DNA of 51,155 bases, taken from Butyricicoccus sp. Its GTDB lineage: Bacteria; Bacillota; Clostridia; Oscillospirales; Oscillospiraceae. A program made the position numbers and the translations under genes. The notes below the pieces were generated by a model that made no database searches, was not told the DNA's origin, and saw only the letters and a program-made list of their open reading frames with translations. This document shows, piece after piece, positions 1 through 48,271 of this stretch (position 1 is the first letter of the stretch; every line of letters starts with the position of its first letter). The stretch is taken from the NCBI GenBank assembly GCA_023664105.1, contig JAMPGF010000001.1, forward strand, positions 1 to 51,155, given 5' to 3'.

Positions 1-213
1 AAAAACTACAAAATTTCTTCGGCGTTTTCTTACAATTTCAAATCGGCGTTGACAGCGTACAAAGCTCATCATGCGTTTAAGCTCCGGCCTGTCCATGCTC
101 TTACCGCTCATTCGGTCTATGTATACCTGCTCAACACCAAGCTCACGCATAAGCACCTCCTGTCTGGCCGTGTTCTGATCCACCGTGCTGGTTCGGATAT
201 AACCTATTTTCAA
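1..213 (-). CDS. Small serine recombinase (resolvase/invertase), N-terminal region, partial at the window edge
   Basis: Not in the ORF track. Minus-strand translation from TTG at 213 (GAGAGGTGG RBS ~6 nt upstream) gives MKIGYIRTSTVDQNTARQEVLMRELGVEQVYIDRMSGKSMDRPELKRMMSFVR, the classic resolvase N-terminus with the catalytic Ser in YIRTSTVDQ. After FVR the expected GD..vV.S.sRl.R motif is replaced by CQRRFEIVRKRRRNF, so it may be disrupted. Confidence 0.5.
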   Translation of the reverse strand, partial: MKIGYIRTSTVDQNTARQEVLMRELGVEQVYIDRMSGKSMDRPELKRMMSFVRCQRRFEIVRKRRRNFVVF

Positions 214-230
214 TTTTACCACCTCTCATT

Positions 231-328
231 CCCAATAGGGTCCCTTCTGCAAATGGCATATGCCAAAAGCCGGAAAATGACCCTATTGGGATGCTTTTTT
301 ACCATGTCAATAGGGTGTACCCTAATGG
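231..328. repeat. Cluster of CCCAATAGGGT half-sites (res-like or operator-like) between the DUF3846 gene and the resolvase start
   Basis: CCCAATAGGGTC at 231-242 has its perfect inverted copy GACCCTATTGGG at 279-290. Palindrome TGGCATATGCCA lies at 254-265. An abutting imperfect inverted pair TCAATAGGGTG/TACCCTAATGG lies at 307-328. Confidence 0.45.
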
Positions 329-351
329 CACTGCTTCTTCCCCCTTCTTGC

Positions 352-714
352 TCACGCCATCGGCAGTACTACAAGATGACCGTTCAAGCTTATGAAAATC
401 TCCGGTACGGCAAACTTAGCTGTGAACTTCTCGATTTGCTCATCTGTCAGCGAAGCAAAGCTGTCTCCGTCTATCCCGCAAATAAAGAAGACCCCGCACA
501 CAACATCATAGAGCTTGTCGCTGCTGTTCTGCATAATACGGTTAGCTGGCAGTCCAAGTATTTTACCCTCATCATTACAGACTAAGGCAACAGGGTCATC
601 AAAAGGGTATAATGCCTGTATAAGCCCGCCTACAGTTTCCTGCATAGATTCCAGCGTACCGTCGATATCTCTGATTTTCGGCTTCCTTTCTGGTTCAACC
701 ACTAAAATGCGCAT
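352..714 (-). CDS. DUF3846 domain protein (typical of conjugative-element and phage accessory regions)
   Basis: N-terminus MRILVVEPERKPKIRDIDGTLESMQETVGGLIQALYP matches the DUF3846 pattern (M.vlvVEPgk.P....I.g.LesmQ..VGG.Ie). Its start is 3 nt from the upstream ORF stop. Confidence 0.75.
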   Translation of the reverse strand: MRILVVEPERKPKIRDIDGTLESMQETVGGLIQALYPFDDPVALVCNDEGKILGLPANRIMQNSSDKLYDVVCGVFFICGIDGDSFASLTDEQIEKFTAKFAVPEIFISLNGHLVVLPMA

Positions 715-716
715 AT

Positions 717-941
717 CTATCTTACCTCCTTAGCCAGATTGCTGAAAAGCTCATCTACCATATCGGCGTCAAAGCCGTCAATGATGTCATAGTCACGGCA
801 GAAGGTCAGAAACCGCTTGAACATGCCTCGACCGAATCCGGCCTCGATGCGGCTTATAATATGACCTTGACGTATGGAATCAAGGCAGTCTGTTAAATCT
901 CCGCTGGTATTGCGGAATCTGCAATAGCTCATGTTTGACAC
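717..941 (-). CDS. Hypothetical small protein (74 aa)
   Basis: GTG start with a GGTGGG RBS ~9 nt upstream. It sits in an operon between the amidotransferase and the DUF3846 gene. No family recognised. Confidence 0.5.
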   Translation of the reverse strand: MSNMSYCRFRNTSGDLTDCLDSIRQGHIISRIEAGFGRGMFKRFLTFCRDYDIIDGFDADMVDELFSNLAKEVR

Positions 942-969
942 TGTTGTTATCCCACCTTATAAAAGCTCG

Positions 970-1896
970 TTATAGCCTTCCACAGTAAAGGAAATCCTCT
1001 ACATCTTCCAAGGTAAAGCCCTGCTCTAATATCGCGTCTATGTTCTCCGGAGTGTAGCCGAAGGATGCCGCCACAGACTTCACCTCGTCAAGATGCTTCT
1101 GCTCACGGCTTGCCCTGCGCTGATAGGAAAATCCCGTATAGAAGCCATACCGCATTGGCCAGCCAGACAAGAAGGATGACGTATCAAACTCAGCGCGAGT
1201 GATACCGCCAGCAGGGGAGACTTTCAGAATTTCTCCGCAGTCAGCCTTGATTTTTACGGGCTTTCCCATACGGAGCCGTGCCTTCCCCAAAAATTTGCTG
1301 AGTATTTCATCTGTAGAGGCATAGAGATACAGACTATAACGGGGGAAGTGCAACAGGCACATGGGGTTGTCTCCCTTAACCAGATACCAGTTATTCGCCT
1401 CGTCCAGAACGGTAAAAGTAAAAGAGCCCTCGACATGTTCAGCCATGTATTTCAGGCTGTCAAAGTCGAGGGCTTTCTTCTTCTCAATAAGCTGAACGGC
1501 AACGTAGCTGTCAGTCTGTATTTTGGTCTGTGGAAGCTTTTGAGAGCGGCGCAGTATGTGGTCGTTATGCAAAACGCCGTTGTGCGCCAGAGCAAAGCGT
1601 TTTCCACCCACCTGTCCTAAAAACGGGTGATTGTTATAGTTTTTCTTCTCACTGCCTTGGGTGGTCATCCGTGTGTGGCCCATTACAGCTACAGCGTCGT
1701 TGGGAATACGGAAGTTCAGCTTATGAGCTGGAACAGGGCGCTTATAGACATGCAAGCTCCCGCCGGAATTATAGGCTATTCCGGTAGCGTCCGTGCCTCT
1801 TGCCTCACACTCAGCTGCAAGGACAGACAACAGCGCTGTTTTCTGCCTTCCTGTAAAGTTTCCTCCATAATCAAGCATACCAAAAAGACAGCACAT
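970..1896 (-). CDS. Class-II (Ntn-type) glutamine amidotransferase domain protein
   Basis: N-terminal MCCLFG places a nucleophile Cys directly after Met. GHTRMTTQG and HPF...ALAHNG motifs are typical of the GATase_2 / Ntn hydrolase fold. The start codon overlaps the amidoligase stop (TGATG). Confidence 0.8.
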   Translation of the reverse strand: MCCLFGMLDYGGNFTGRQKTALLSVLAAECEARGTDATGIAYNSGGSLHVYKRPVPAHKLNFRIPNDAVAVMGHTRMTTQGSEKKNYNNHPFLGQVGGKRFALAHNGVLHNDHILRRSQKLPQTKIQTDSYVAVQLIEKKKALDFDSLKYMAEHVEGSFTFTVLDEANNWYLVKGDNPMCLLHFPRYSLYLYASTDEILSKFLGKARLRMGKPVKIKADCGEILKVSPAGGITRAEFDTSSFLSGWPMRYGFYTGFSYQRRASREQKHLDEVKSVAASFGYTPENIDAILEQGFTLEDVEDFLYCGRL

Positions 1897-3008
1897 CAGA
1901 TTTCCTCCTCATTTGTTACAGGCTCATTGACATACAGACGCTGTTCCTTCAAATACTGCACCAGCTCCGGCTGGGTACAGCCGGACACAAACGAGGTCCA
2001 CGCCATTGCTTGCAGAAGCTCATCAGACATATTGACGGCCAAATCACATATCCTGTCTACAAGCTGCACGGTGGCGATCAGGGTATTGTATTTGAGTGTC
2101 CCCCGAAAGATGCGGAACTCTATTGTGTCGCTGTTTTGAAGGTTTACCGAGGCATAGCGCCCTCGGCCGCAGCCGCTCTTGGCGCTGTCAAGTATTTCCA
2201 TTGGTTGATCCTTATAGCCATATCTGGCAGCCCAACGGTCAAGTTGGCTTTTGCTGCGGCGGCTGAATTTCAGAAGCTCGTCCCAGAATTTCTCCACTAT
2301 GTAGAGTATACGGGCGATGCACATCTCCTGCTGTGTTTCCGTATAGCCGAAAGCGGAGCGGTTGACATGGATATGCAATCCGCAGGTATTCGCCTTATGC
2401 GACAGGTAGCCCATTTTAACAGCCTCACCCAAGAGCTCCAGCCATGGCATAGATTGTTGGTGGTATTCCAGCGTCATAGGGTGAGTGACGATTTCAAAGC
2501 CGTCGGAAAGGCTTCCGTCGTGCTTGCAATATACCCGCTCCACACCTCGGTTTGCCTGTCGCATTAACTGACAGGCATGGTCGGAGTCTTCGCCGCCAGC
2601 GTCTATTTCAAGCTCCACGCCGTAATAGCGGCTGCCCTTGCCGTAGAAGATGGGTGTTGGCTTATAGGAGTAGTCGTGTATTTCCTTGTCACGTTGGCTC
2701 CTGCAATAGCAGCTCCAACATAACGGGTCATCCTGATCGCAGTCCTCGTCAGCATAATAGGCGTCATCGCAGTTGATGGTCCTGCCGCAGTGTTCACAGG
2801 TGGTATAGAAATTGTCATAGCAGGATCGGCAGAGGGGTATGCGGTCGTCTCCGGCGTTGTCGTCGTTCCAGATGCGCCGTCCACAGCGGGAGCAGGTTGT
2901 TGTTTCCAGCCCTATACAGCTTGGACACAGGAGCTGATCGTCAAACTCTATGAGCGATCCAAGGGAATGGGCTTCGCCGCATACGCTGCATCTTTCGAGT
3001 TCTCTCAT
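1896..3008 (-). CDS. Amidoligase (Amidoligase_2 / glutamine-synthetase-like COOH-NH2 ligase) with an N-terminal triple zinc-ribbon region
   Basis: Motifs YGVELEID, KHDGSL.DGFEIVTHP, CGLHIHVN and TIEFRIFRGT match the putative amidoligase enzyme family. The N-terminal ~110 aa carry six CxxC pairs. RBS is GGAGGTAATACC-ATG. Confidence 0.8.
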   Translation of the reverse strand: MRELERCSVCGEAHSLGSLIEFDDQLLCPSCIGLETTTCSRCGRRIWNDDNAGDDRIPLCRSCYDNFYTTCEHCGRTINCDDAYYADEDCDQDDPLCWSCYCRSQRDKEIHDYSYKPTPIFYGKGSRYYGVELEIDAGGEDSDHACQLMRQANRGVERVYCKHDGSLSDGFEIVTHPMTLEYHQQSMPWLELLGEAVKMGYLSHKANTCGLHIHVNRSAFGYTETQQEMCIARILYIVEKFWDELLKFSRRSKSQLDRWAARYGYKDQPMEILDSAKSGCGRGRYASVNLQNSDTIEFRIFRGTLKYNTLIATVQLVDRICDLAVNMSDELLQAMAWTSFVSGCTQPELVQYLKEQRLYVNEPVTNEEEI

Positions 3009-3032
3009 GGTATTACCTCCATAAATAAATTG

Positions 3033-3055
3033 CGCGGAGCAGTCAGCTCCGCGCT
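3033..3055 (-). terminator. GC-rich hairpin downstream of the XRE gene and immediately upstream of the amidoligase RBS
   Basis: GCGCGGAGC-AGTCA-GCTCCGCGC. On the minus-strand RNA it is followed by AAUUUAUUUAU. Only ~25 nt separate it from the amidoligase start, so it may act as an attenuator rather than a full stop. Confidence 0.45.
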
Positions 3056-3146
3056 TTCTATGAAGATAATATATAATTTCAGATTTTTTTGCTTGCGATG
3101 ACAGTCATTGTCCATATTGTTTGTTACAATTACTGATAGAATGTTG

Positions 3147-3380
3147 CTAATCGTCGAATTTCAGGAATTTGTAGGCAGGAATATCCAGCGCTTCGGCAAT
3201 AGCGAACAGCGTATCCATGGAAATTGCTTTGCTGATATTCGGCGCTTCTACATGGCCGATAAAGGCGGGAGTGCAGCCTATTTCTTCCGCAAGCTGTTCC
3301 TGTGTTAATCCTGTCAATTTCCGAAAGTATGAAATTTTCAAGCCAAGCTGTAAATATTGCGATTTATAGTGGGGATCCAT
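3147..3380 (-). CDS. XRE-family helix-turn-helix transcriptional regulator
   Basis: LKISYFRKLTGLTQEQLAEEIGCTPAFIGHVE is a canonical HTH_3 (Cro/CI) signature. It is divergent from the WYL operon. Confidence 0.85.
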   Translation of the reverse strand: MDPHYKSQYLQLGLKISYFRKLTGLTQEQLAEEIGCTPAFIGHVEAPNISKAISMDTLFAIAEALDIPAYKFLKFDD

Positions 3381-3424
3381 ATATTCACCTCGTTTATCTC
3401 TATTTTACTCCGCAGCGACAACTA

Positions 3425-3453
3425 TTGACATGACTTGAAAATTATAATATTAT
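3425..3453 (+). promoter_or_regulatory. Sigma-A-type promoter candidate for the WYL operon
   Basis: TTGACA (3425-3430), 17-nt spacer, TATTAT (3448-3453). Palindrome GCTCTGACAGAGC (3495-3507) lies in the predicted 5' UTR. Confidence 0.45.
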
Positions 3454-3523
3454 ATCTCTAAGACAGTGATATATATTTTTGAGATACTTAACATGCTCTG
3501 ACAGAGCAAAAAGAGGTAAAATT

Positions 3524-4474
3524 ATGGAGCGAATTTCGGAGGCAAAATCCACACGTTTGCTGACAATATACGCAAGGCTCCTGTCGGGACAAGTATTGAA
3601 CAAGAGGGCACTTGCCCTTGAGTTCAATGTTACGGAGCGGAGCATACAGCGTGATATGGATTCCCTGCGCTGCTTTTTGTCAGATCAGGGATTGGCTCAA
3701 AACGTGCTGTACGACCGCGGCAAGTATGGCTACTACCTGACAGACATCTTACCAAGGGGACTGTCAAACAGCGAGATACTTGCGGTGTGCAAAATCCTTC
3801 TTGAAAGCCGTTCGATGAGGAAAGACGAGATGTTCCCGATTCTGGACAAACTTATAGACTGCTGTGTGCCAAAATCTAACAGGGCTCTTGTTCTGAATTT
3901 GCTTTCCAATGAAAAGCACCATTACATCGAGCCGCATCACGGCGTATCCGTTCTTGATTGGCTCTGGGAGATTGGACAGGCAGTGCAGCAGCACCGTGTG
4001 ATGGAGATCGAATACCAGAAGCTGAACGCGAGGGAATGGGTACATCGCGTTATAGAGCCGGTAGGTATACTGTTTTCCGAGTATTACTTTTACTTAGCTG
4101 CTTATATCCGAAATATTGACCGGAAAGAATCATTTGAAAACCCAGCGGACAATTTTCCAACAATTTACAGAATTGACCGTATACGTTCTCTGTGTGTGAC
4201 GGATGAACGATTTTCACCTGCTTATTCGGGCAGATTTCAGGAGGGGGAGTTCAGAAAGCGCGTTCAGTTTATGTACGGAGGCAAGCTGCAAACTGTGCGG
4301 TTTACCTATTCCGGACCATCTATCGAGGCTGTGCTGGACAGGTTGCCGACAGCTAAGGTAGTGGATGAGCAGGAGGGGGTGTATACGGTCCAGGCAGAGG
4401 TGTTCGGCAAGGGAATCGATATGTGGCTACGCAGCCAAGGGGAGTTTGTGAGAACAATTAACCAGATTAATTAG
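3524..4474 (+). CDS. WYL-domain transcriptional regulator (HTH + WYL; YafY/PafBC/BrxR/CapW-like architecture)
   Basis: Start moved to the ATG at 3524 (AGAGG RBS). The N-terminal HTH is TRLLTIYARLLSGQVLNKRALALEFNVTERSIQRDMDSLRCFL. The WYL-like core is PVGILFSEYYFYLAAYI...TIYRIDRIRSLCVTDERF. Confidence 0.8.
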   Translation: MERISEAKSTRLLTIYARLLSGQVLNKRALALEFNVTERSIQRDMDSLRCFLSDQGLAQNVLYDRGKYGYYLTDILPRGLSNSEILAVCKILLESRSMRKDEMFPILDKLIDCCVPKSNRALVLNLLSNEKHHYIEPHHGVSVLDWLWEIGQAVQQHRVMEIEYQKLNAREWVHRVIEPVGILFSEYYFYLAAYIRNIDRKESFENPADNFPTIYRIDRIRSLCVTDERFSPAYSGRFQEGEFRKRVQFMYGGKLQTVRFTYSGPSIEAVLDRLPTAKVVDEQEGVYTVQAEVFGKGIDMWLRSQGEFVRTINQIN

Positions 4475-4485
4475 GAGGTTATTTT

Positions 4486-5325
4486 ATGCTTTATGTGAAA
4501 CCAAAAAAAGAAGCACTTGCCATCCATGAGAAAGCAGTGGTCAAATACAATTCTGCCTTTCAAGAGATGGAAAAATTAGGAAATCGTCTTTATGACAAGC
4601 GACTTGATTGTGTTGCACTAATACAAGAGATTGAGCTGCTGGTGAACAGTATTGCCAATCGTCCAAAGGAATTTGAAAAAAAATTCTCCGAAATTGAGGA
4701 GGCAAGTAAGAAGTTTAAGGAAACTGAGGCTTATGCGGTGGAGGCAATGGAAGCTACTATAAAATCAGGAGCAAGTGTTGCTGCTGGTATAGCAGGTGGC
4801 GCTGCTGTAGCTGGTTTGGCACCCTCAGCTGCTATGTGGGTTGCTACAACATTCGGAACGGCCTCTACGGGAACAGCGATATCTGCGTTACATGGTGCAG
4901 TTGCCACTAAAGCAGCATTGGCTTGGTTAGGTGGTGGTGCATTATCTGCTGGTGGTGCAGGCATTGCGGGAGGAAAAGCACTTTTAGCACTTGCTGGCCC
5001 CATTGGTTGGGGGATTAGCGGAGTAACCACAGCAGCATCGGCTGTGGCACTGGGGCACAAAAACAAAGAAATCTCGGATAAGGCCATTGCTGAGGCAAAG
5101 GAAATTACCATTGCTGGTGCGGAAGTAAGCGAAGCCAGTGCAAAAATTCAACATCTTACGGATGAAACTCTTATGCTACTGGGTTCTCTGCGAGATATGA
5201 CACAAGCAAATATGCCTCTAAAGGGTGCAGACTACTTGGAACTGAGTGACAATGAGCAATATCGCCTCGGAACAATGGTAAACAACACCTTGGCTTTGGC
5301 AGAAATGCTTAATAAAACGATCTAA
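4486..5325 (+). CDS. Uncharacterised protein: charged helical N- and C-terminal segments flanking a ~100-aa Gly/Ala-rich glycine-zipper hydrophobic core
   Basis: GGAGG RBS 7 nt upstream, and the start is 11 nt after the WYL gene stop. The core reads GASVAAGIAGGAAVAGLAPSAAMWVATTFG...LGGGALSAGGAGIAGGKALLALAGPIGWGISGV, with repeated small-xxx-small spacing. No family recognised. Confidence 0.7.
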   Translation: MLYVKPKKEALAIHEKAVVKYNSAFQEMEKLGNRLYDKRLDCVALIQEIELLVNSIANRPKEFEKKFSEIEEASKKFKETEAYAVEAMEATIKSGASVAAGIAGGAAVAGLAPSAAMWVATTFGTASTGTAISALHGAVATKAALAWLGGGALSAGGAGIAGGKALLALAGPIGWGISGVTTAASAVALGHKNKEISDKAIAEAKEITIAGAEVSEASAKIQHLTDETLMLLGSLRDMTQANMPLKGADYLELSDNEQYRLGTMVNNTLALAEMLNKTI

Positions 5326-5336
5326 GGAGGATGGCT

Positions 5337-6797
5337 ATGGACGCTGCACAAATCGTAAAAAGCACACAGGAACAGGGCGTTGCTGCATGGGTAAATTACC
5401 TGAATCAACTGAGGTTGAATGAGCTGGTGACAAAGCTTACTGCACAAGATACAAACCTGGAGGAGGCATTGGCAGAAATCCAAAAATTCAAATGTTTTAT
5501 CGGAGACCCAAATCATATTTTAGGCAGTGCAACTACGAAGCATGGTGAAATTGCGGAGAATGCCCAGGTCTATATTTCAAATGCCAGAAGGTTAATTGAG
5601 GGTTTATCTAAAGAGTTCACTTTTGAAGGAGTTGCCCGGACCGCTCCAGAAGATTATTTAAAAAATGGTCAACAAATTCAATCGAAATTTTTGCATGATG
5701 TGAAAGCAACACTAAACGGAAGCGGGAATGCCGAAGGCATCAGGCAACATATAGGAAAATATCCTTGGTTTGTGAAAAATGGTGGCTCTTATGATATCCC
5801 TAAAAATCAGTATGACGAAATCATGCGTGTTCTGCAATTACGGCAGGATTCCCCCACTCTATTAACAAGAGGGGATAGACGTTTGCTTGCAGCTATTGAT
5901 TCCTTTGAGAAAGAAACTGGATTACGCATATCTAAAGATGTGCGTCCCGCTGTGGTAAACTATAGCGATGTTCAGCAAGGAAAAGCCAATAAAACCATTT
6001 TAAAAGAAGAAACATCAATTAAAGATACAGACCAGAAGCGTCGTGATAACGCATATGAAGCCAGCAAACCCACGCTGAAACAGGGGGCGCAGGCCACTGT
6101 TGTTTCGGCTGCGGTGGAAGGTGGCATATCATTTTGCCTTGGCATAGCGAAAAAGCATAAACAAGGCAAACACCTTGCAGATTTCACGGCGGAGGATTGG
6201 CAGGAAGTTGGCATTGATACCGTAAAAGGAACAGCTCAAGGAGGTATCCGGGGTGGAGTAATTTATGCCATGACAAATTTTACTGCCACTCCCGCAGCTG
6301 TTGCAAATGCATTGGTAACAGCATCTTTTGGAATTGCAGCACAGGCTTATCAACTTCGGCAAGGCAATATTACGGAGGAAGATTTTATTGTAAACTCAGA
6401 GGTGCTTTGTCTTGATGTGTCTGTAAGCGCACTTGCTTCAATGTTGGGTCAGGTTTTGATTCCCATCCCCGTCCTTGGAGCAATAATTGGAAATGTGGCA
6501 GGCATGTATATGTATCAGATTGCAAAGGAACACCTTTCTGAGAAGGAGCAGGAACTGATTGCCAACTATCGCGAGAGTTTTGCAAATCTCAATGAAATAC
6601 TGGAGGAAAGATATAAAGAACTGATTGCCCGATTGAAAAAGGAATTTGCAAAGTATACTTCTGTATTGGAACTCGCCTTCGACATTAATGTCAATGTTGC
6701 TTTCAGCGGTTCCATTGCCTTGGCAAATTATGTTGGTGTAGCTCCTGAAAATATATTGATGAGCAAGCAGGATATTGATAAATTTTTTTTGAATTAA
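5337..6797 (+). CDS. Uncharacterised protein: ~235-aa soluble N-terminal domain plus a polytopic hydrophobic C-terminal region and a coiled-coil tail
   Basis: The second ATG (5337) has better spacing from AAGGAGG than the track start at 5331. Hydrophobic segments are VVSAAVEGGISFCLGIA, GGVIYAMTNFTATPAAVANALVTASFGIAA and LASMLGQVLIPIPVLGAIIGNVAGMYMY. No family recognised. Confidence 0.7.
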   Translation: MDAAQIVKSTQEQGVAAWVNYLNQLRLNELVTKLTAQDTNLEEALAEIQKFKCFIGDPNHILGSATTKHGEIAENAQVYISNARRLIEGLSKEFTFEGVARTAPEDYLKNGQQIQSKFLHDVKATLNGSGNAEGIRQHIGKYPWFVKNGGSYDIPKNQYDEIMRVLQLRQDSPTLLTRGDRRLLAAIDSFEKETGLRISKDVRPAVVNYSDVQQGKANKTILKEETSIKDTDQKRRDNAYEASKPTLKQGAQATVVSAAVEGGISFCLGIAKKHKQGKHLADFTAEDWQEVGIDTVKGTAQGGIRGGVIYAMTNFTATPAAVANALVTASFGIAAQAYQLRQGNITEEDFIVNSEVLCLDVSVSALASMLGQVLIPIPVLGAIIGNVAGMYMYQIAKEHLSEKEQELIANYRESFANLNEILEERYKELIARLKKEFAKYTSVLELAFDINVNVAFSGSIALANYVGVAPENILMSKQDIDKFFLN

Positions 6798-6813
6798 AAG
6801 GAGGATATGTTAA

Positions 6814-7350
6814 ATGGAAACAAATAATAGCGTCAACTATGAGGATGATTTTTTGGAGGATGTCCAAGAGTACGAGTACAAGGAGATGATTGAAAAGGCC
6901 AATAACATTGTGCTTGGCTTTACAGCATCCACTGGTGTGACTGGTGTAGTTCCCATACCGTTTGCTGATGCTCCACTGCTAATTGCGCAGCAAGTAGCTA
7001 TGATGGTTGCTATTAATGGAGTTTTTGAGTTTGACATTGAGCGTGACGCACTCAAATCTCTTGCTACGGCGGCGATTGGTGTTGGAGGCGCAACTGTGAT
7101 AGGTAAAACCGTTGCATCAAATCTCTTGAAGATGATTCCTGGAGTTGGATCGGTAGCAGGAGGAGCTATTTCTGCTGGCACAGCAGGGGTAATTACATTG
7201 GCATTGGGTAAAGCCTACATAGAAGTATGCAAGGCAATCAAAATGGGTAAGTTGGATCAGAGTGATTTGACAAAAAAAGCTGGGTTGGATATGCTCAAAA
7301 AATCTTTCAAGGAGCAGATGAAGAAAAAGAAGAGTGGCGATTCAGATTAA
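6814..7350 (+). CDS. DUF697-like membrane-associated protein (YcjF-type domain), stand-alone
   Basis: AAGGAGG RBS. GVVPIPFADAPLLIAQQVAMMVAINGVFEF fits the DUF697 core pattern (sP.p..D...l...q..Mi..Ia..yG). It is followed by Gly-rich hydrophobic segments and a lysine-rich tail. Confidence 0.6.
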   Translation: METNNSVNYEDDFLEDVQEYEYKEMIEKANNIVLGFTASTGVTGVVPIPFADAPLLIAQQVAMMVAINGVFEFDIERDALKSLATAAIGVGGATVIGKTVASNLLKMIPGVGSVAGGAISAGTAGVITLALGKAYIEVCKAIKMGKLDQSDLTKKAGLDMLKKSFKEQMKKKKSGDSD

Positions 7351-7388
7351 AGTCCTGACACGGTTATCTACCTATGAGCTTAATTAAG

Positions 7389-7417
7389 TTGACACTTACC
7401 CAACATCATGGTAAACA
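7389..7417 (+). promoter_or_regulatory. Promoter candidate for the excisionase-like gene
   Basis: TTGACA (7389-7394), 17-nt spacer, TG-n-TAAACA (7409-7417; extended -10-like). Confidence 0.35.
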
Positions 7418-7442
7418 ATCCACCGCAAAGGAGTGCGATACC

Positions 7443-7631
7443 ATGCTGGACGAATATGCTGATATCCTGACTGCTGACGAGGCTTGCGAGGTGCTGCGGG
7501 TAGGTTATAACACCCTGTACGCCATGCTCAACTCTGGGGAACTTAAAGCCTACCGAAACGGGCGCAGCTGGAGGATACCAAAGCTGGCTGTGCAGGAGTA
7601 CATACTGAAAAATGCCAGACTCAGCGCATAA
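7443..7631 (+). CDS. Excisionase-family / MerR-superfamily helix-turn-helix DNA-binding protein (HTH_17)
   Basis: Start moved to the ATG at 7443 (AAGGAG RBS). ILTADEACEVLRVGYNTLYAMLNSGELKAYRNGRSWRIPKLAVQEYI is the typical excisionase-type wHTH signature. Confidence 0.75.
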   Translation: MLDEYADILTADEACEVLRVGYNTLYAMLNSGELKAYRNGRSWRIPKLAVQEYILKNARLSA

Positions 7632-7637
7632 GAGGGG

Positions 7638-7667
7638 AGGCACCGGAACAGCTCCGGTGCCTTTCTC
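7638..7667. terminator. Bidirectional intrinsic terminator between the excisionase-like and relaxase genes
   Basis: AGGCACCGGA-ACAGC-TCCGGTGCCT followed by TTCTC. It lies between convergent stops at 7631 and 7672. Confidence 0.6.
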
Positions 7668-7671
7668 ACAC

Positions 7672-8163
7672 TTAATAATCTTTGCTTGACACATATTGTA
7701 GTTTATTGATACCGTAGTGTCTCAGTATGCCTCTCAAGGCGCTCTGAAACGCATAAAACTCCGATTTTCGTCCGTAATAGCGCGCACCAGTACGGTAACT
7801 CACTGAGTTATGTACAAGATGAAAATGAAGATTGGGCTTGTCCTCATGTACCGAGTAGAGGGCTTGATATTCTTGCCCTATATACTTTGCTGTATGTTGA
7901 GCAATTTCATTGGCAACAGCAGGATCATTCAATTCCCATGCCTCAAAGGAAATTATAAAGTGCCGAAGCTGAACACCATCCGTTTTGCCAAACCGCTCAG
8001 ATACAAGCGTCATACTTCCGGCGGGATTTATAAGGTCAACGCCTACTCCGCCAAAATACCCATGGATTGCTTTGTCCGCGCGGAAAATGTATTCGGTAAG
8101 CACCTCCTTGGCGTCTTCATTAAAGTATCTGCCTTTTCCATTTGCAGTTTTTAATATTGCCAT
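7672..8163 (-). CDS. Relaxase/mobilisation nuclease domain protein (MobA/VirD2-type), unusually short at 163 aa
   Basis: LRHFIISFEAWE and the histidine triad region HEDKPNLHFHLVHNSV fit the relaxase H.D...H.H..N motif. It is flanked by an AT-rich upstream region. Confidence 0.75.
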   Translation of the reverse strand: MAILKTANGKGRYFNEDAKEVLTEYIFRADKAIHGYFGGVGVDLINPAGSMTLVSERFGKTDGVQLRHFIISFEAWELNDPAVANEIAQHTAKYIGQEYQALYSVHEDKPNLHFHLVHNSVSYRTGARYYGRKSEFYAFQSALRGILRHYGINKLQYVSSKDY

Positions 8164-8434
8164 TTTAATCTCTCCTTATATTATCCTATATATTCTAATT
8201 ATTATATATTATCTTATTAATTATCTATATACAGTGTATATAACTAATCTAATACATAATTTTAATCTACTTACTTTTACTTTCTATATTGGTAGCAAGG
8301 GGAAGAACAGTATATATGTCCTTCCCCTTGGGGGCCCAAGTATTCTTTACATAATCGTTAGTTCCGTTATAAAAAATTACCTTGCGTTTTGCTCTATAAA
8401 TTCAGCCCTCACAAGCATTGCTGCCTTGTGGGGG

Positions 8435-9880
8435 CTAAATCTTCCATATGATGTTGACGCGGTTATCTTCCAGCAGGATGCGTTCTATAAACTCCGATGC
8501 TATCAGTTTCTTTTCCTCAAAGCTGGCGGCATCAAAGTCAAGACGTTTGCTGCATGGGGCCGGAGCTGTGCTTTGCGTAAGCAGAGTCTCGCGCTGTTTG
8601 TGAAGCTTGTCAATTTGCCTGGATATATATACGGCGGATATCTCGCTGCTCTCAGCCAAGGCATTGACCAGGCGCTCTATTTTTTGTTCCACGGCAAGAA
8701 GTGCCTCGGATATTTCCTGATTGTCTGTGCCTATGTCCTCCGCAGGACAGTCTGACAGCACATCTTTGATCTGAGCAGCAATCTGCTGCTCCAGCTCACG
8801 AAGGTCAATATGAATAGCTGCATCGCAGTTGGCCAGGTTGGAGCGGCCTGAGCATATCAGATAAAAACGTTTATCCGGTTTACTGTAGTTTATCTTCACC
8901 GCATAGCCACATTTATTGCATTTCATCAGTCCGGTAAGCCACGAGTATTTTCCGGCATTGGCGTGGGAAATCTGAGGGTTCTTTGCCAGCTTTTCCTGTA
9001 CGCGGAGCCAAAGGCCGGAGTCAATAATTCCCCCGTGGTTGGCAACTGTTAATTGTTGTCCCTCGAGGGAATTGTACTTATTCCTGCTTCTGTCTCTTCG
9101 TCCGATAACATTACATGCGTGAACGCCGTCAAAAGCCTCTAATGGCTGCTGTATCTGCATACCCATAGCCAGATAGTGTAAATACACATCCTCGTCCGCG
9201 CAAACGTACAGAGGGCTATGTAAGAGGCGAGAGAGGGTAACATTGTCCCAAGCCTCGCGCTTAGGGCCGTGGATACCCTGCGCAGTCAGATCTCTGGCGA
9301 TGCTGCGAAGGGAAACCTCCGGCCTTGCATACTCCTCAAAGATTTTCCGGACAATACTTGCCTGTCCGTTGGCGCGCAGCGATGACACCCGACGTTCATT
9401 GTCTGTGACCTTGATTAAATCAAAGCCATATGGAGCGGGGCCTCCTGGCCATGCACCCAGGGAAAAACGGTGAATATAGTTATCCTTGACACGTTCAGCA
9501 GTTGTCTCCCGCTCCAGCTGTGCAAAGACAAGCACGATGTTGAGCATTGCCCGACCGATAGGGGAGGATGTGTCAAAATTCTCGGTTACAGACAGGAACT
9601 CCACACCATACTTCTGAAACACCTCCCACAATCGACTGAAATCCGCTATAGACCGACTGAAGCGGTCAAGGCGGTATACATACACCTTTTTGATCTGACC
9701 CGCCTCTACGGCCTGCATAAGCTCTGTAAAGGCGGGGCGCTTTGTGTTCTTACCCGAAAAACCCTTGTCCTGAAAAACGCGGTAGTTCTCGTTCGCGTAT
9801 TTGCGGCAGTACTCTATCTGCCCCTCTATGGACAAACTGTCTTTTTTGTCTATAGATTGTCTTGCGTAAATTGCGTCCAT
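8435..9880 (-). CDS. Large serine recombinase (integrase)
   Basis: N-terminal resolvase domain MDAIYARQSIDKKDSLSIEGQ with catalytic Ser, YVYRLDRFSRS, a recombinase domain, a zinc-ribbon (CNKCGY...CSGRSNLANC) and a C-terminal coiled coil. Confidence 0.95.
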   Translation of the reverse strand: MDAIYARQSIDKKDSLSIEGQIEYCRKYANENYRVFQDKGFSGKNTKRPAFTELMQAVEAGQIKKVYVYRLDRFSRSIADFSRLWEVFQKYGVEFLSVTENFDTSSPIGRAMLNIVLVFAQLERETTAERVKDNYIHRFSLGAWPGGPAPYGFDLIKVTDNERRVSSLRANGQASIVRKIFEEYARPEVSLRSIARDLTAQGIHGPKREAWDNVTLSRLLHSPLYVCADEDVYLHYLAMGMQIQQPLEAFDGVHACNVIGRRDRSRNKYNSLEGQQLTVANHGGIIDSGLWLRVQEKLAKNPQISHANAGKYSWLTGLMKCNKCGYAVKINYSKPDKRFYLICSGRSNLANCDAAIHIDLRELEQQIAAQIKDVLSDCPAEDIGTDNQEISEALLAVEQKIERLVNALAESSEISAVYISRQIDKLHKQRETLLTQSTAPAPCSKRLDFDAASFEEKKLIASEFIERILLEDNRVNIIWKI

Positions 9881-9883
9881 GGC

Positions 9884-9997
9884 TCAACCCTCCGAGCGAT
9901 GCGCGCGTATAAGGAGAATGCAGCGGCGGTGAATTGCAGCCTGACGTGCCAGACGTTCTTTAACGTCTTTTGTTGTGAATGTGTTTGTAATAATCAT
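9884..9997 (-). CDS. Small ORF (37 aa) immediately upstream of the serine recombinase; possible DNA-binding or directionality factor
   Basis: Not in the ORF track (<60 aa). A strong GAGGAGG RBS lies 8 nt before the ATG. It encodes MIITNTFTTKDVKERLARQAAIHRRCILLIRAHRSEG. Its TGA lies 3 nt before the recombinase ATG. Confidence 0.35.
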   Translation of the reverse strand: MIITNTFTTKDVKERLARQAAIHRRCILLIRAHRSEG

Positions 9998-10211
9998 GAT
10001 AGTGTCCTCCTCATGAAAATGATATGTAGCTGAACCGAACCAATATTACTGAACGAACAGCCTTATGAGAAGGTTATGTCTTGTGTAAAACTTTACAAAC
10101 GCACAGTGATTAGCCGCTTGGGCAGCTCTGGCTAACAAGGATGATATAAGGTCGCTTTTTGTCCACGATAACTTATATAGAAAGAATAAGAATTTTCCCT
10201 ACAAAATCACT

Positions 10212-10240
10212 TTTCCTACAAGCGTAAGTTGTGATATAAT
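10212..10240 (+). promoter_or_regulatory. Extended -10 promoter candidate reading into repeat copy A and the 603-aa ORF
   Basis: TG-A-TATAAT at 10232-10240 with a weak -35 (TTTCCT, 10212-10217). Confidence 0.45.
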
Positions 10241-10270
10241 TAGCAAAAAGGAGTGAATTCACAAATGCTA

Positions 10271-10430
10271 ATACTAAAAACCGTTAAAAAGCTTTAATTC
10301 TATGTAAAGCTTTTTATAGCGCCGAAGGCGCGTCGGTTTTTTAATGAGACGGCACGCCGCGCAAAGCGCGGCGTGAGCGTGCGCAGCACGCGGAATTTCA
10401 AATTAAAGAATTTAATTTGAAATTAGTATA
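10271..10430 (+). repeat. Structured dispersed repeat, copy A (~160 nt; ATACTAA...TTAGTAT closing helix)
   Basis: Shares the conserved blocks ATACTAA, TATAGCGCCGNAGGCGCGTC, TTTTAATGAG, GAGCGTGCGNAGCACGCG and AATTAGTAT with 40441-40680 and, inverted, with 48061-48207. It contains five hairpins plus two enclosing helices. Confidence 0.85.
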
Positions 10431-10478
10431 AACGATTATGATGACATTCTTTGCGGCTACCACGTTGATAAGCGTTAT

Positions 10479-12290
10479 ATGTACATCAAGGATATAGAAA
10501 AACAAAAAAAGGACCGTCGACAAGAGATTATCGATACAATTAATGCGAGAGCATATATTAGCAATAGAAACCGATGTTATCCACCCTATTCCACTCCACA
10601 ATATCAAAATCCAGCGCTTTTCTTTTGGGCTATAAATGAGAATTTGCGGATACTTGGAACGAACCTGGAGCTTAATATGACCAGCATCGATGAATTGAGT
10701 CCTTATAGACAAAGAGAAATAAAAAGCGTATTGGGAGATTCGTGGTGGGAAGAACCTTTGCAAGACGTTTATTTTTATTTGGAAACACTACAATTTTCAG
10801 AATACTATAACGCGTTGCTGGCTTTTAAATGGGCAGCTCATTTGATATCATTTCCTTTGTTTGAGCAATATAACTGCGTACAAATGATTGACGGTAAGCT
10901 GTTTTGCAGATTATCCAACCAAAATGAGCTAAAGGATGATTATACTCGTATAGTACGATTAAGTAATGGTTTATACTTGTATAAGTATGATCCTCAAAAG
11001 AGTGTGAAGAAAGGCGAGCAAGGGGAAGGTTTGTTACTGCTGACTGATGAAATAGTGGGCGGATTAATCCGGCTGAATGGTGGTCAAAAGGATTTTTCAT
11101 TACGAAAGAAAAAGGATTTGGGTAAACACTTGGTCGAACTGCATGAGGATGATCCGTACGCTAAAAGGAACAGATTAGAAGGCGAAAAGGTAGTGCGCTA
11201 TCGGGAAGGTGTACTGGAATATGTTCCAACTATGGCTAAGGTACGATTCTCCCAAAAAAATGTTCCCGAATTGATATATTTGCCTTCTTTGGGCGGCTAT
11301 CCAGAGGAGGCCAAGCCATCAAAGCGCCTGGAAAATACGTTGCTATCTTTAACAAATGGGGATTTAGATAAGTTAGATGTTCTGGCAGAATTTCTGGCAC
11401 GTACATTTTGCATATCTGCACCGTCTAAGTACCTTTGGTATGTTCATGGAAATAGCGCAGCATTTGCCCAGTGGGTCGAAAAAATGGTTGAGGGCAAAAC
11501 GTGCAGCACAGTTTACAATCCCAAGCTCACTCAGGCAAGAATGGATCTCATATATGATCAAATAAAACAGCACCTAATTCAGTTTAATTCTGATCCGATA
11601 TCCGCAACAGAGTTCGCCAAATTGAACCACTCAAAATTAAATGGATACATAAACGGTGGTGAAATTATTGTCGTTGATGATCCCTATCAAATAAAGGAGA
11701 CCGAAAGCTACTATCCCCTTGTTGCATTTTTTAGCGAGGGGAACAGTATGGACACTGAAAAAGCATTTAGATCATTACCATATAAGGAAATCAATGTTCC
11801 AGACGGATGGACCTCAAAAGACCTCTCCCGTGAGGATTTCCAATGGCTGAAAATTTGCTTAGTTGCGAAAGGGTTGCAGTTAATTCAAGGATATGAACGT
11901 CGCAAAGTACAATCGGAACAAATAAATATAGATCACGTTGTTCGTCGGTTTGCAAATGATTTTTGCAAGCGCATTAAAGACAGTCGTACTGGATGTAAAA
12001 CGTTTTATAAAGCTTTGAAAAATTATTTAGATACTCTTCCGTATGATGGTAAGCTCGAAGGTTCGACCAAGACCACTGAATATGTGGCAGCACTAATGAA
12101 TTGGGAGTGTAAAGATGACAGGAAGAACAAAAATAGAAAAGCCTTCTGGGATATCTATCTTGATGAGGACAAGCTAAATGCAGCGATAGAAGAAAACAAG
12201 GCCAAAAAAGAGCAAGAGCAGCAGGAACGGGCTGCTCGCAGCTTCCACGAATACTTAAACGAGATTACTGAGCTTGTAATCTGGTCGTAA
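10479..12290 (+). CDS. Hypothetical 603-aa protein; C-terminal half weakly resembles P4/D5-type primase-helicase C-terminal regions but with a degenerate Walker A
   Basis: The long AT-rich ORF has no competing frame. KYLWYVHGNSAAFAQWVEKMVEG sits where G.G.NGKS is expected. GGEIIVVDDP is Walker-B-like. VVRRFANDFC...TFYKALKNYL is D5-C-terminal-like. No clear RBS at 10479, so the start is uncertain. The stop coincides with the element junction. Confidence 0.55.
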   Translation: MYIKDIEKQKKDRRQEIIDTINARAYISNRNRCYPPYSTPQYQNPALFFWAINENLRILGTNLELNMTSIDELSPYRQREIKSVLGDSWWEEPLQDVYFYLETLQFSEYYNALLAFKWAAHLISFPLFEQYNCVQMIDGKLFCRLSNQNELKDDYTRIVRLSNGLYLYKYDPQKSVKKGEQGEGLLLLTDEIVGGLIRLNGGQKDFSLRKKKDLGKHLVELHEDDPYAKRNRLEGEKVVRYREGVLEYVPTMAKVRFSQKNVPELIYLPSLGGYPEEAKPSKRLENTLLSLTNGDLDKLDVLAEFLARTFCISAPSKYLWYVHGNSAAFAQWVEKMVEGKTCSTVYNPKLTQARMDLIYDQIKQHLIQFNSDPISATEFAKLNHSKLNGYINGGEIIVVDDPYQIKETESYYPLVAFFSEGNSMDTEKAFRSLPYKEINVPDGWTSKDLSREDFQWLKICLVAKGLQLIQGYERRKVQSEQINIDHVVRRFANDFCKRIKDSRTGCKTFYKALKNYLDTLPYDGKLEGSTKTTEYVAALMNWECKDDRKNKNRKAFWDIYLDEDKLNAAIEENKAKKEQEQQERAARSFHEYLNEITELVIWS

Positions 12291-12292
12291 AA

Positions 12293-12562
12293 ACGTCCCT
12301 TGAAGCCGCTGCCAGTGGGGACAGTCTCGACTGGAAGGAGCTTTCGGCCTCGGAGATACATAAGCGTGTGACTGGGGGCGTGCAGGCGGGGAGCATTGTG
12401 CTGTTCCACAACGCCGCGCTGCACACGCCGGAGGCGCTGGCGGGGATAATCGAATACCTGCTGGCAAACGGCTATAATATTGTGCCTGTATCCGAGCTTT
12501 TGCTGACGGGGGAGTTTGAAATGGATCACACGGGCAGAATGTGCAGGCCCGGAACGGCCTGA
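12293..12562 (+). pseudogene. 3' fragment of a polysaccharide deacetylase (NodB/PdaB-like) gene, truncated by the element
   Basis: The in-frame translation from ~12293 is ...GDSLDWKELSASEIHKRVTGGVQAGSIVLFHNAALHTPEALAGIIEYLLANGYNIVPVSELLLTGE. This is the C-terminal third of NodB-fold deacetylases (DxxDW and LxH motifs). There is no N-terminal catalytic part and no start or RBS. The exact 5' boundary is uncertain. Confidence 0.7.
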
Positions 12563-12578
12563 CGGATTCAGGTTTTAC

Positions 12579-12621
12579 GCCGGTGCGGGGCAGCGTTTGC
12601 TTCCCTCACCGGCATTTTTTT
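12579..12621 (+). terminator. Intrinsic terminator after the deacetylase fragment
   Basis: GCCGGTGCGGGGCAGC-GTTT-GCTTCCCTCACCGGC (two G-U positions) followed by ATTTTTTT. Confidence 0.7.
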
Positions 12622-12684
12622 GCCGAAGCAGAAAATAAATGCTGTTTTTCCAACAAAAAATGTCTTCTGAAGGCCTTTAATTAT

Positions 12685-12700
12685 TGTCAATCGATTGACA
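12685..12700. promoter_or_regulatory. Perfect 16-bp palindrome (operator candidate) upstream of the nfnAB promoter
   Basis: TGTCAATCGATTGACA, 5 nt upstream of the -35 element. Confidence 0.4.
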
Positions 12701-40092: not shown

Positions 40093-40246
40093 GACAGGCT
40101 GGAGGAGCCGCAAGAGGCCGCATCTGGCACGTTTTTGGAGCTATTGCACAAAAATGAGCTGTCTGAATTGAATATATCGTACAAACCACCTCTTGTTTTT
40201 TCCGCGTGATTGCCGTATACTCTCACGCAAGAAAGGAGGTGGCAGG

Positions 40247-40372
40247 ATGCTTGACTTATTTGTCCTCTTCGACGGAACGGAGCGGGAGGAAAGCTCCTCC
40301 GACACCCCGGACGAGGTTAAGTTCGCGCGTGTCTATTTCTCGTACTACCCCTATCTGGCCGCGAACAACTGA
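40247..40372 (+). CDS. Small ORF (41 aa), hypothetical
   Basis: Not in the ORF track. A strong AAAGGAGGTGG RBS lies 6 nt before the ATG. It encodes MLDLFVLFDGTEREESSSDTPDEVKFARVYFSYYPYLAANN and is followed by a clean terminator. Confidence 0.4.
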   Translation: MLDLFVLFDGTEREESSSDTPDEVKFARVYFSYYPYLAANN

Positions 40373-40398
40373 TACTACTGATACATGAGATAGTACCG

Positions 40399-40434
40399 AA
40401 AGCGGGCTTTCCACGACGGAAAGCCCGCTTTTTG
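40399..40434 (+). terminator. Intrinsic terminator after the 41-aa ORF
   Basis: AAAGCGGGCTTTCC-ACGAC-GGAAAGCCCGCTTT followed by TTG. Confidence 0.8.
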
Positions 40435-40440
40435 TTCCTT

Positions 40441-40680
40441 ATACTAAACCCTGATAAAAAGCTCAAAGAGCATTTTCCCCAAAGGGGATGCGGCATCCCT
40501 AAGGCGGCGAAGCCGCCAAGGGCTGCCGGATATAGCGCCGCAGGCGCGTCAGGGTTTTAATGATGAGATAGCCGTTGGCGGCTTCGCCGCCTTACGGATA
40601 TCCATGCACAGCAGACGGCGCGGCGCGAGCGTGCGAAGCACGCGGAATTCTCGATTGATCTTTCGATCGAGAATTAGTAT
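40441..40680 (+). repeat. Structured dispersed repeat, copy B (240 nt; expanded by extra GC-rich triloop hairpins)
   Basis: It has the same termini (ATACTAA / TTAGTAT) and conserved blocks as copy A. The enclosing helix and the terminal hairpin are maintained by compensatory changes. It ends 30 nt before the next gene start. Confidence 0.85.
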
Positions 40681-40710
40681 TACACTATACTGCTACAGGA
40701 GGAAAAAAAT

Positions 40711-48061: not shown

Positions 48062-48207
48062 TACTAATTTCAAATTAAATGCTTTAATTTGAAATTTCGC
48101 GTGCTACGCACGCTCACGCCGCGCAAAGCGCGTCGTGCCGTCTCATTAAAAACCTGACGCGCCTACGGCGCTATAAAAAACTAAAGTTTTTTAACAGGTT
48201 TTAGTAT
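48061..48207 (-). repeat. Structured dispersed repeat, copy C (147 nt, inverted relative to A and B)
   Basis: The reverse complement aligns end-to-end with copy A apart from a shorter first hairpin. Its first base is the A of the ATP-grasp TGA stop. Confidence 0.85.
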
Positions 48208-48271
48208 GATACTTTTCCGGGGACAGCAAAGCAGCCGGTATGGCGAAAGCCATACCGGCTGCTTTTGGTTT

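Follow-up and report, generated by a model that had tools for sequence, protein, structure and literature searches.

The 51,155-nucleotide stretch of DNA analysed here (the window; positions 1 to 51,155 of the forward strand of contig JAMPGF010000001.1, assembly GCA_023664105.1, Butyricicoccus sp.) contains three copies of a dispersed structured repeat. These repeats are very probably, at roughly 85% by our estimate, members of a family of MITEs (miniature inverted-repeat transposable elements) of about 150 bases that inhabits gut and rumen Oscillospiraceae, duplicates a T-N-A target and keeps a fold of five hairpins by compensatory base changes. Taken together, the duplicated target, the inverted ends, the identical copies found at many sites, the nesting of one copy within another and a 49-nt derivative indicate a MITE and not an element of the IS200/IS605 type. 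The definition of a MITE, with a size of about 50-800 bp, is taken from PMC11602168; in the family described here we find small elements without an open reading frame (ORF), inverted ends, a short duplication and many dispersed near-identical copies. The family is undescribed and its conserved fold is unusually elaborate, but it belongs to a well-known class of elements and does not represent a novel type of RNA gene. No paper describing it was found in the literature, and Oscillospiraceae go unmentioned in the main text, as distinct from the catalogue, of a large automated MITE survey.

A previous reading made without database searches (the sequence-only reading) had placed three copies at 10271-10430 (+), 40441-40680 (+) and 48061-48207 (-), and all of them were found at these coordinates; we refer to them as copies A, B and C. 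Its description of common blocks, of a long-range helix whose sequence differs from copy to copy, of terminal hairpins and of triloops that vary was likewise borne out. That reading also assigned one copy to an AT-rich element and two to GC-rich DNA, in agreement with a GC content of 37-47% around copy A, on a low-GC island, and of roughly 60% around copies B and C. A 20-nt block, TATAGCGCCGNAGGCGCGTC, occurs exactly three times in the window compared with 0.02 occurrences expected from shuffles, and an nhmmer search with a family profile built from 39 relatives matched only copies A, B and C in the window.

Target-site duplication, inverted ends and dispersal

The sequence-only reading had found no target-site duplication evident. 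Instead, a direct T-N-A repeat flanks all copies, being TAA at copy A, TTA at copy B and TCA at copy C when each is read on its own strand. The ends had also been described as pairing with each other (ATACTAA/TTAGTAT); the pairing exists, but its outer A...T belongs to the target duplication and not to the element.

Two samples of the family were used to examine the flanks. A scan with the block around hairpin hp2 (described below) against one genome per bacterial species gave at least 104 loci, and a looser pattern, TTATAGCGC-N5-9-GCGCGT-N7-14-ATGAGACG, gave at least 120 further loci on metagenome contigs. An equal TNA was present on both sides in 58 of the 64 delimited copies of the species-genome set (TTA 24, TCA 21, TGA 9, TAA 4). 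The independent metagenome set, in which some sites were sampled repeatedly and distinct sites number 54, showed an equal TNA in 79 of 92 copies (TTA 34, TCA 34, TGA 9, TAA 2). Agreement of the middle base by chance is 0.33-0.38, and the binomial tails are about 1e-21. During the first delimitation the left T and the right A lay outside the search expression, yet they are T and A without exception. Within a single genome, near-identical copies are flanked by TCA, TTA or TGA. Since the middle base varies among such copies of one genome, it is supplied by the target, and the repeat is hence a true duplication. The element proper is TACT...AGTA, flanked by this TNA duplication. A TA duplication of the IS630 type was considered and rejected because it leaves the matching middle base unexplained, and so was the core of a site-specific recombinase, which needs equal middle bases in donor and target whereas identical copies carry different ones.

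Inside the duplication the two ends are inverted repeats, imperfect and about 20 nt long, and so of a length suited to a MITE, for which at least 10-15 bp are expected. The left one reads TACT(A/G)-N7-9-(A/T)TAAAA and the right one is its complement, with TACT invariant at both ends and (A/T)TAAAA at positions 13-18. The first 22 nt match the reverse complement of the last 22 nt at a mean of 15.7 positions. The high-copy subfamily TACTAGTTCTTGATAAAAAG / TACTCTTTCTTGATAAAAAT reaches 19-20 matching positions out of 22, and the window copies have 13-15.

These ends bear on the earlier proposal of a non-autonomous transposon of the IS200/IS605 palindrome-associated transposable element (PATE) type, of which the first part stands and the second gives way before the duplication and the symmetric TACT...AGTA ends. 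In a PATE, or in another Y1/HUH single-strand transposon, TNA would be a cleavage motif and the subterminal hairpins would be recognised. Such an element would suit the density of hairpins, several of which have C-GNA-G loops, and an orientation bias relative to the target. However, the middle base of the right TNA equals that of the left flank and yet differs among identical copies (TCA, TTA, TGA), which marks a true duplication; the ends are inverted repeats and not asymmetric; no Y1 or TnpB gene was seen near any copy examined; and the GNA loop of hp2 is an artefact of the first search pattern. We therefore regard a PATE as very improbable.

Nearly all of the matches listed for species genomes come from about 40 metagenome-assembled genomes (MAGs) of Oscillospiraceae, Clostridia or 'Clostridiales', which originate from goat, deer, cattle, rabbit, chicken and human gut. 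By its own genes, the window falls close to Oscillibacter, Dysosmobacter and Lawsonibacter. Genomes carry several copies, several of which stand at true contig ends, and a handful of matches in unrelated phyla are chance matches without an element. The profile search of the first locus set gave 140 matches in 738 kb, some of them from additional subfamilies in which the hp2 loop is different or hp4 is missing. Identical cores are present at 12, 9 and 5 distinct flank pairs.

Several loci show one copy inserted into another. A copy of the main subfamily interrupts hairpin hp5 of a copy of another subfamily in locus L037, with TAA on both sides, and the host copy has its own TCA duplication. Another copy lies within the hp1 loop AAGCTT-TCA-AAGCTT of locus L067, while a paralogous copy (L058) is uninterrupted at that point, and the nested pattern is also seen in L059 and L062. 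Searches of plasmid and phage collections returned no match or noise. Viral contigs scanned with the hp2 pattern gave 0 matches, and those scanned with the end pattern gave chance matches and one divergent MITE. This divergent member (L138, 4886-5055, on an IMG/VR viral contig of 68% GC) is placed between one ORF's stop codon and the ribosome-binding site of the ORF that follows; its ends are TACTG...TTAGTA, it has a P1 helix and a terminal hairpin but neither the hp2 block nor ATGAGACG, and it is flanked by TAA and TAG. A minimal derivative was also observed (L084, 2254-2340), a 49-nt perfect palindrome that consists of the left inverted repeat, hp1 and an inverted repeat between TCA and TCA flanks. 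In locus L176 (10924-12346; likewise in L254, L272 and L275), a 300-aa ORF lies between two MITEs of different subfamilies, both TTA-flanked and one without hp2. This 1.4-kb unit was considered as a single mobile element and rejected as such, being two separate insertions.

Fold, covariation and constant core

Core lengths are 145-238 nt for the window copies and 116-229 nt across the wider family; the cores have no internal ORF and share a common plan. The left part consists of the TNA duplication, TACT(A/G)(G/A), a variable 5' arm of the long-range helix P1 (6-8 nt), (A/T)TAAAA, hairpin hp1 (A-run, stem, T-run) and TATA. The middle has hairpin hp2, GCGC(C)-loop-(G)GCGC, followed by GTC, the 3' arm of P1 and an unpaired linker, (C)TGCATGAGACG(G). 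The right part holds hairpins hp3 (10-15 bp), hp4 (5-9 bp) and hp5, an AT-rich stem of 10-17 bp across the family, and ends with N-AGTA and the second TNA. Hairpins take up nearly all of the interior, and P1 encloses hp1 and hp2. Long variants have optional modules at fixed points, one separating hp1 from hp2 and the other placed in the linker after ATGA and before GACGG. Copy B is one of these. Its inverted pair (40495-40524 and 40570-40599) is 93% complementary, both arms being GGCGGC-GAA-GCCGCC hairpins, and the 30-nt unit has no further occurrence in the window or in 285 loci. Inserts comparable to those of copy B are present at the same linker position in L034, L008 and L024, and other long variants (L025, L034, L100) have different GC-rich hairpin inserts at its two module positions.

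The sequence-only reading took covariation to imply selection on a folded strand, and compensatory changes over 39 further sequences, set against controls, bear this out. Copies A, B and C fold with energies of -67.5, -117.8 and -54.0 kcal/mol, corresponding to z-scores of -6.6, -7.5 and -4.5 against dinucleotide shuffles. For the 39 distinct sequences RNAalifold predicted P1, hp1, hp2 and hp5, with both sides changed in 17 of 28 pairs. Paired cells amount to 95.6% compared with 79.7% in column shuffles, the observed value being reached in 0 of 500, and fall to 40-54% once the partners are slid by 1-3 columns as a control. Cells changed on both sides number 189 versus 58.5 in shuffles. Two-sided changes were found in 6 of 7 pairs of P1 across the family and in 7 of 7 counted pairs of hp5; hp2 is invariant in this set because the search pattern forced it to be. 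When their segment was folded alone, hp3 to hp5 formed in 42 of 43 standard-length elements (at most 175 nt), and each of these three hairpins occurs with a dozen or more distinct stem sequences. The 47 distinct cores fold with 97% Watson-Crick pairs. The idea that P1 and hp5 covary merely as copies of the inverted repeat was dropped, as the match between an element's own ends (15.7) is barely above that across subfamilies (14.7).

Variation within subfamilies leads to the same conclusion. A gap-free 149-nt subfamily (43 sites, 28 distinct sequences) has 0.52 variants per paired position versus 1.10 per unpaired position. Stems thus vary half as often as loops, and the fold is therefore under selection. 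The 56 stem variants of this subfamily divide into 16 compensated, 12 G-T and 28 pair-breaking. Over three gap-free subfamilies single stem changes gave G-T in 11 cases and A-C in 4, and internal mismatches in the 3' hairpins were G-T in 12 and A-C in 6. This G-T excess, which is not significant (p = 0.12), hints at the plus strand as the folded strand, be it RNA or single-stranded DNA. A G-A mismatch in the stem context CAGC/GATG recurs family-wide (L001-L104, L166-L285), in hp3 of one subfamily and in hp4 of others.

A scan against Rfam 15, a check suggested by the sequence-only reading, gave no gathering-level match in the whole window, and a permissive scan of copy A gave noise only, the best score being 27.1 bits against a cut-off of 70. 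A strong conserved fold with covariation and no Rfam match could also correspond to stand-alone small RNA genes or to a riboswitch-like cis-regulator, multiplied by duplication and immobile, which would then be new. The sequence-only reading had named a novel non-coding RNA among its options, besides a recombination or regulatory module; nothing indicates a free-standing RNA gene, and no promoter-like site was seen in the window copies. An immobile RNA gene is at odds with the duplication, the inverted repeats and the nested insertions, with identical copies at unrelated sites beside unrelated genes and in both orientations, with the lack of a conserved promoter or terminator and with the absence of the repeat from orthologous sites of close relatives. 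We consider it highly unlikely.

The intergenic location, the shortness and GC-richness of the hairpins and a frequent position just after genes or terminators are also reminiscent of REP/BIME-like extragenic palindromes maintained by a RAYT-type enzyme. The elements are, however, composites of five hairpins and 145-240 nt, with defined inverted ends and a TNA duplication, and no RAYT-like gene was seen, so that this reading has next to no claim on the data.

Within the MITE, one part of the fold stands out. The core, consisting of the hp2 stem (ATAGCGC...GCGCGTC) and the unpaired ATGAGACG, is constant while P1, hp1, hp3, hp4 and hp5 differ among subfamilies, a constancy that is partly imposed by the search patterns used. 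The hp2 loop is variable in unbiased samples (GAG, GAA, AAC, AAG, AAA, GCA). A role of this loop as an extra-stable G-N-A DNA mini-hairpin was considered and dropped, since the first search pattern had imposed the loop and unbiased loops differ.

One possibility, unlikely in our judgement, is that the transposon carries a functional module in which the hp2 stem, the ATGAGACG linker, hp3 and hp4 act as a cis-acting RNA or a protein-binding site. Such a module might be a stabiliser or processing site in a 3' untranslated region (UTR), or a site for a host factor or a transposase accessory, spread by the transposon and selected at its loci. It would be consistent with a core that stays constant across subfamilies differing in all other hairpins and P1, with stems that vary half as much as unpaired positions within a subfamily, with the leaning to G-T over A-C as a hint of one folded strand, and with a third of the insertion sites falling exactly on a stop codon that closes an ORF of 250 aa or more, one orientation being predominant. 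The related bcr1 element is transcribed (PMC3184786). On the other side, the G-T excess falls short of significance, a crude count of co-directional neighbours is unbiased (6 vs 6), promoter-like sites are missing from the window copies, and the mini element of L084 has no core and yet its own duplication. In addition, half of the single stem variants break pairing, as in decaying copies, and the search patterns contributed to the constancy of the core.

Mobilisation, target preference and points of doubt

The TNA rule of these MITEs points to a type of mobiliser. The IS1031 subgroup of the IS5 family prefers TNA targets (PMC1676026), and the same rule is known in eukaryotic PIF/Harbinger-like relatives (PMC4482050). 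From this rule the likeliest mobiliser would be a DDE transposase of the IS5 superfamily (IS1031-like). Acting in trans, the transposase would bind both ends and cut the target with a 3-nt stagger at T-N-A, and repair would then duplicate TNA on both sides. Selection for the fold would act most simply on those copy lineages that are still able to transpose or are tolerated. We favour the view that the hairpins serve transposition, or that they make the insert harmless within transcripts.

Flanks of the insertions are roughly palindromic, T-Y-[TNA]-R-A. At 26 of 80 distinct insertion sites the element sits on a stop codon that closes an ORF of 250 aa or more, and in 20 of these the gene reads into the 3' end of the element; copy C is a verified example. 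Neighbouring TNA triplets within 60 nt, used as a control, coincide with such a stop codon in 24 of 432 cases (Fisher p = 1.6e-10). An initial count with ORFs of at least 80 aa was not above its local control, owing to the many spurious ORFs of GC-rich DNA, and greedy gene calls were unreliable for this test. Cruder controls showed no enrichment and selection against intragenic insertions contributes, so that the association of insertions with stop codons is only suggestive. It is conceivable, though we doubt it, that the functional module considered above is planted preferentially on stop codons, oriented so that its antisense strand enters the upstream gene's 3' UTR, and that it serves throughout Oscillospiraceae as a portable cassette of the 3'-end, stability or regulatory type, or else that the fold is needed for an unconventional, orientation-sensitive insertion.

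Relatives of the window offered partial views of sites without the element. The ATP-grasp gene beside copy C was compared with contigs at 87-89% identity and with members of the window protein's own 90%-identity cluster; the gene has the same stop position in these relatives (GAGGA(C/T)-TGA or TAA) with no element after it. Relatives at 92-94% identity have 59 nt between the two genes that flank copy B, compared with 618 nt in the window. All these relatives differ in neighbouring sequence too, so that none offers a clean empty site. For copy C an empty junction would be expected to read GGGAGGACTGATACTTTTCCGG, and exact look-ups of the flanking proteins gave no record.

Several points weigh against a plain MITE moved by an IS5-type transposase. 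To our knowledge, typical MITEs do not keep five internal hairpins across dozens of species, nor do they hold an unpaired ATGAGACG and an hp2 stem constant amid change elsewhere; given these conserved hairpins and the constant core, the element may do more than move. The insertions have an orientation bias, the central base of TNA being a pyrimidine on the plus strand in 45 of 58 copies (45:13) and in 68 of 79 (68:11), and this is not predicted by a symmetric transposase complex. The duplication is called TNA by convention: judged from the letters, 3 duplicated nucleotides are inseparable from a 1-nt duplication in which the ends would be A...T, and both would predict the same empty site. An isogenic orthologous empty site was not recovered, homologues at 87-94% identity being without the element and different in nearby sequence as well, and the predicted empty junction of copy A was absent from the metagenome contigs scanned. 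Finally, neither the window nor some 2 Mb surrounding roughly 230 copies yielded an autonomous element, or a transposase, with matching ends; the sources are mostly MAGs, which seldom assemble insertion sequence (IS) copies, and this absence is thus weak evidence. End-pairs at IS-like spacing arose by chance or from two separate MITEs on either side of ordinary genes (L013, L057, L173, L176, L193), ORFs downstream of incomplete copies included no transposase, and an all-against-all BLAST of the loci for IS-sized repeats revealed no autonomous partner.

Window copies, their surroundings and comparison with known systems

Positions of the three copies and their parts, and of the genes of the low-GC island, are collected in Table 1.

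Table 1. Repeat copies A, B and C with their parts, and genes of the low-GC island (window coordinates)
Feature	Position	Strand	Basis or remark
Copy A, left target-site duplication TAA	10269-10271	+	read directly, identical to 10429-10431
Copy A, element proper, 157 nt, TACTAA...TTAGTA	10272-10428	+	nhmmer E-value 4.7e-34
Copy A, right target-site duplication TAA	10429-10431	+	read directly
Copy A, helix P1, 5' arm AAAAACCG	10276-10283	+	pairs with 10334-10341, encloses hp1 and hp2
Copy A, hairpin hp1 (A-run, stem, T-run)	10285-10316	+	fold, family covariation
Copy A, hairpin hp2 GCGCC-GAA-GGCGC, within conserved block TATAGCGCC...GGCGCGTC	10319-10331	+	constant stem
Copy A, helix P1, 3' arm CGGTTTTT	10334-10341	+	fold
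Copy A, unpaired linker TAATGAGACGG	10342-10352	+	ATGAGACG kept across subfamilies
Copy A, hairpin hp3, 10 bp	10353-10375	+	more than 12 stem sequences in family, all paired
Copy A, hairpin hp4 GCGTGC-GCA-GCACGC	10377-10391	+	fold
Copy A, terminal AT-rich hairpin hp5	10394-10424	+	3' arm is right inverted repeat
Copy B, left duplication TTA	40439-40441	+	read directly
Copy B, element proper, 238 nt (long variant, two additional modules)	40442-40679	+	fold, nhmmer
Copy B, extra module, first arm of 30-nt inverted pair	40495-40524	+	between hp1 and hp2; itself a GGCGGC-GAA-GCCGCC hairpin
Copy B, extra module, second arm	40570-40599	+	in linker, after ATGA and before GACGG
Copy B, right duplication TTA	40680-40682	+	read directly
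Copy C, left duplication, TCA on minus strand	48207-48209	-	read directly
Copy C, element proper, 145 nt	48062-48206	-	fold, nhmmer
Copy C, right duplication, TCA on minus strand	48059-48061	-	plus strand is TGA stop of ATP-grasp gene 46865-48061
Island, GATase	970-1896	-	
Island, Amidoligase_2 protein	1896-3008	-	
Island, WYL regulator	3479-4474		
Island, PADLOC candidate defence pair, PDC-M09A	4486-5325		E-value 1e-97
Island, PADLOC candidate defence pair, PDC-M09B	5331-6797		E-value 1e-181
Island, DUF697 protein	6814-7350		
Island, HTH_17 excisionase-like protein	7374-7631		
Island, MobA/VirD2 relaxase fragment	7672-8163	-	
Island, large serine recombinase	8435-9880	-	

Positions 1-12700 of the window form a low-GC island (37-53%) resembling an integrative mobilisable element that carries a defence cargo, and copy A follows shortly after its large serine recombinase. 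Immediately downstream of copy A is a 603-aa ORF (10479-12290, 37-41% GC), which had no match in Pfam or PADLOC, and the surrounding 4 kb were unmatched in the plasmid collection.

Upstream of copy B, a stretch of 346 nt (40093-40438) contains an ORF of 41 aa (40248-40373), which has a ribosome-binding site, and, at 40398-40432, a strong terminator-like hairpin. Given the 59-nt spacing of the flanking genes in relatives, this stretch is an insertion with respect to them as well. Near copy C, a bidirectional terminator-like hairpin (48228-48265; A-run, 17-bp stem, T-run) is common to the convergent genes 46865-48061 (+) and 48272-49405 (-). Copy C stands between this hairpin and the stop codon of the plus-strand gene, whose 3' UTR would therefore hold the element in antisense.

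Oscillospiraceae are abundant, mostly uncultured gut and rumen bacteria, and their mobile DNA is barely catalogued. The family breaks assemblies, as seen from copies at contig ends, inflates intergenic regions and could pass for a structured RNA gene; recognising it aids annotation and RNA-motif discovery. It also provides a marker of recent transposition, and its signature TNA/TACTAG...CAGTA/TNA can be used for transposase hunting. Should the preference for stop codons and the bias in orientation prove real, this would be a natural transposon that spares genes while rewriting their 3' UTRs.

Among known systems, IS200/IS605 PATEs and REP/BIME sequences are similarly hairpin-rich, short, non-coding and dispersed. 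PATEs have no target duplication and asymmetric ends, depend on Y1/HUH enzymes and insert 3' of a fixed tetra- or pentanucleotide, and REP units are single imperfect palindromes of about 20-40 nt without duplication and associated with RAYTs. The Oscillospiraceae family differs from both in its TNA duplication and inverted ends. Correia/NEMIS, RUP, ERIC and comparable MITEs of bacteria have TA or other duplications and a fold that is one long hairpin, whereas the Oscillospiraceae family has a modular multi-hairpin interior with optional modules and a constant core. What they have in common with it is a small size, a high copy number, inverted ends, a short duplication and an RNA fold when co-transcribed (PMC3184786, PMC11602168).

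The IS5/IS1031 elements, and PIF/Harbinger with the Tourist MITEs, share the 3-nt T-N-A duplication and non-autonomous derivatives that are mobilised in trans. The link to them is by the duplication alone: no IS5-type transposase or full-length partner was found, and the TACTAG ends could not be assigned to a known IS by the means used.

The bcr1 element of the Bacillus cereus group (Group A bcr repeats) is about 155 bp long, dispersed, intergenic, protein-less, strain-variable and transcribed (PMC3184786). Like the family described here, it has short flanking direct repeats and a multi-hairpin fold kept by compensatory changes (PMC3184786). It differs in having a 5-bp direct repeat instead of the 3-bp TNA and a two-stem cruciform instead of five hairpins with a long-range helix, and the two share no sequence similarity, their hosts being Bacilli and Oscillospiraceae, respectively. 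Of the described systems, bcr1 is the best functional and anatomical analogue of the Oscillospiraceae family.

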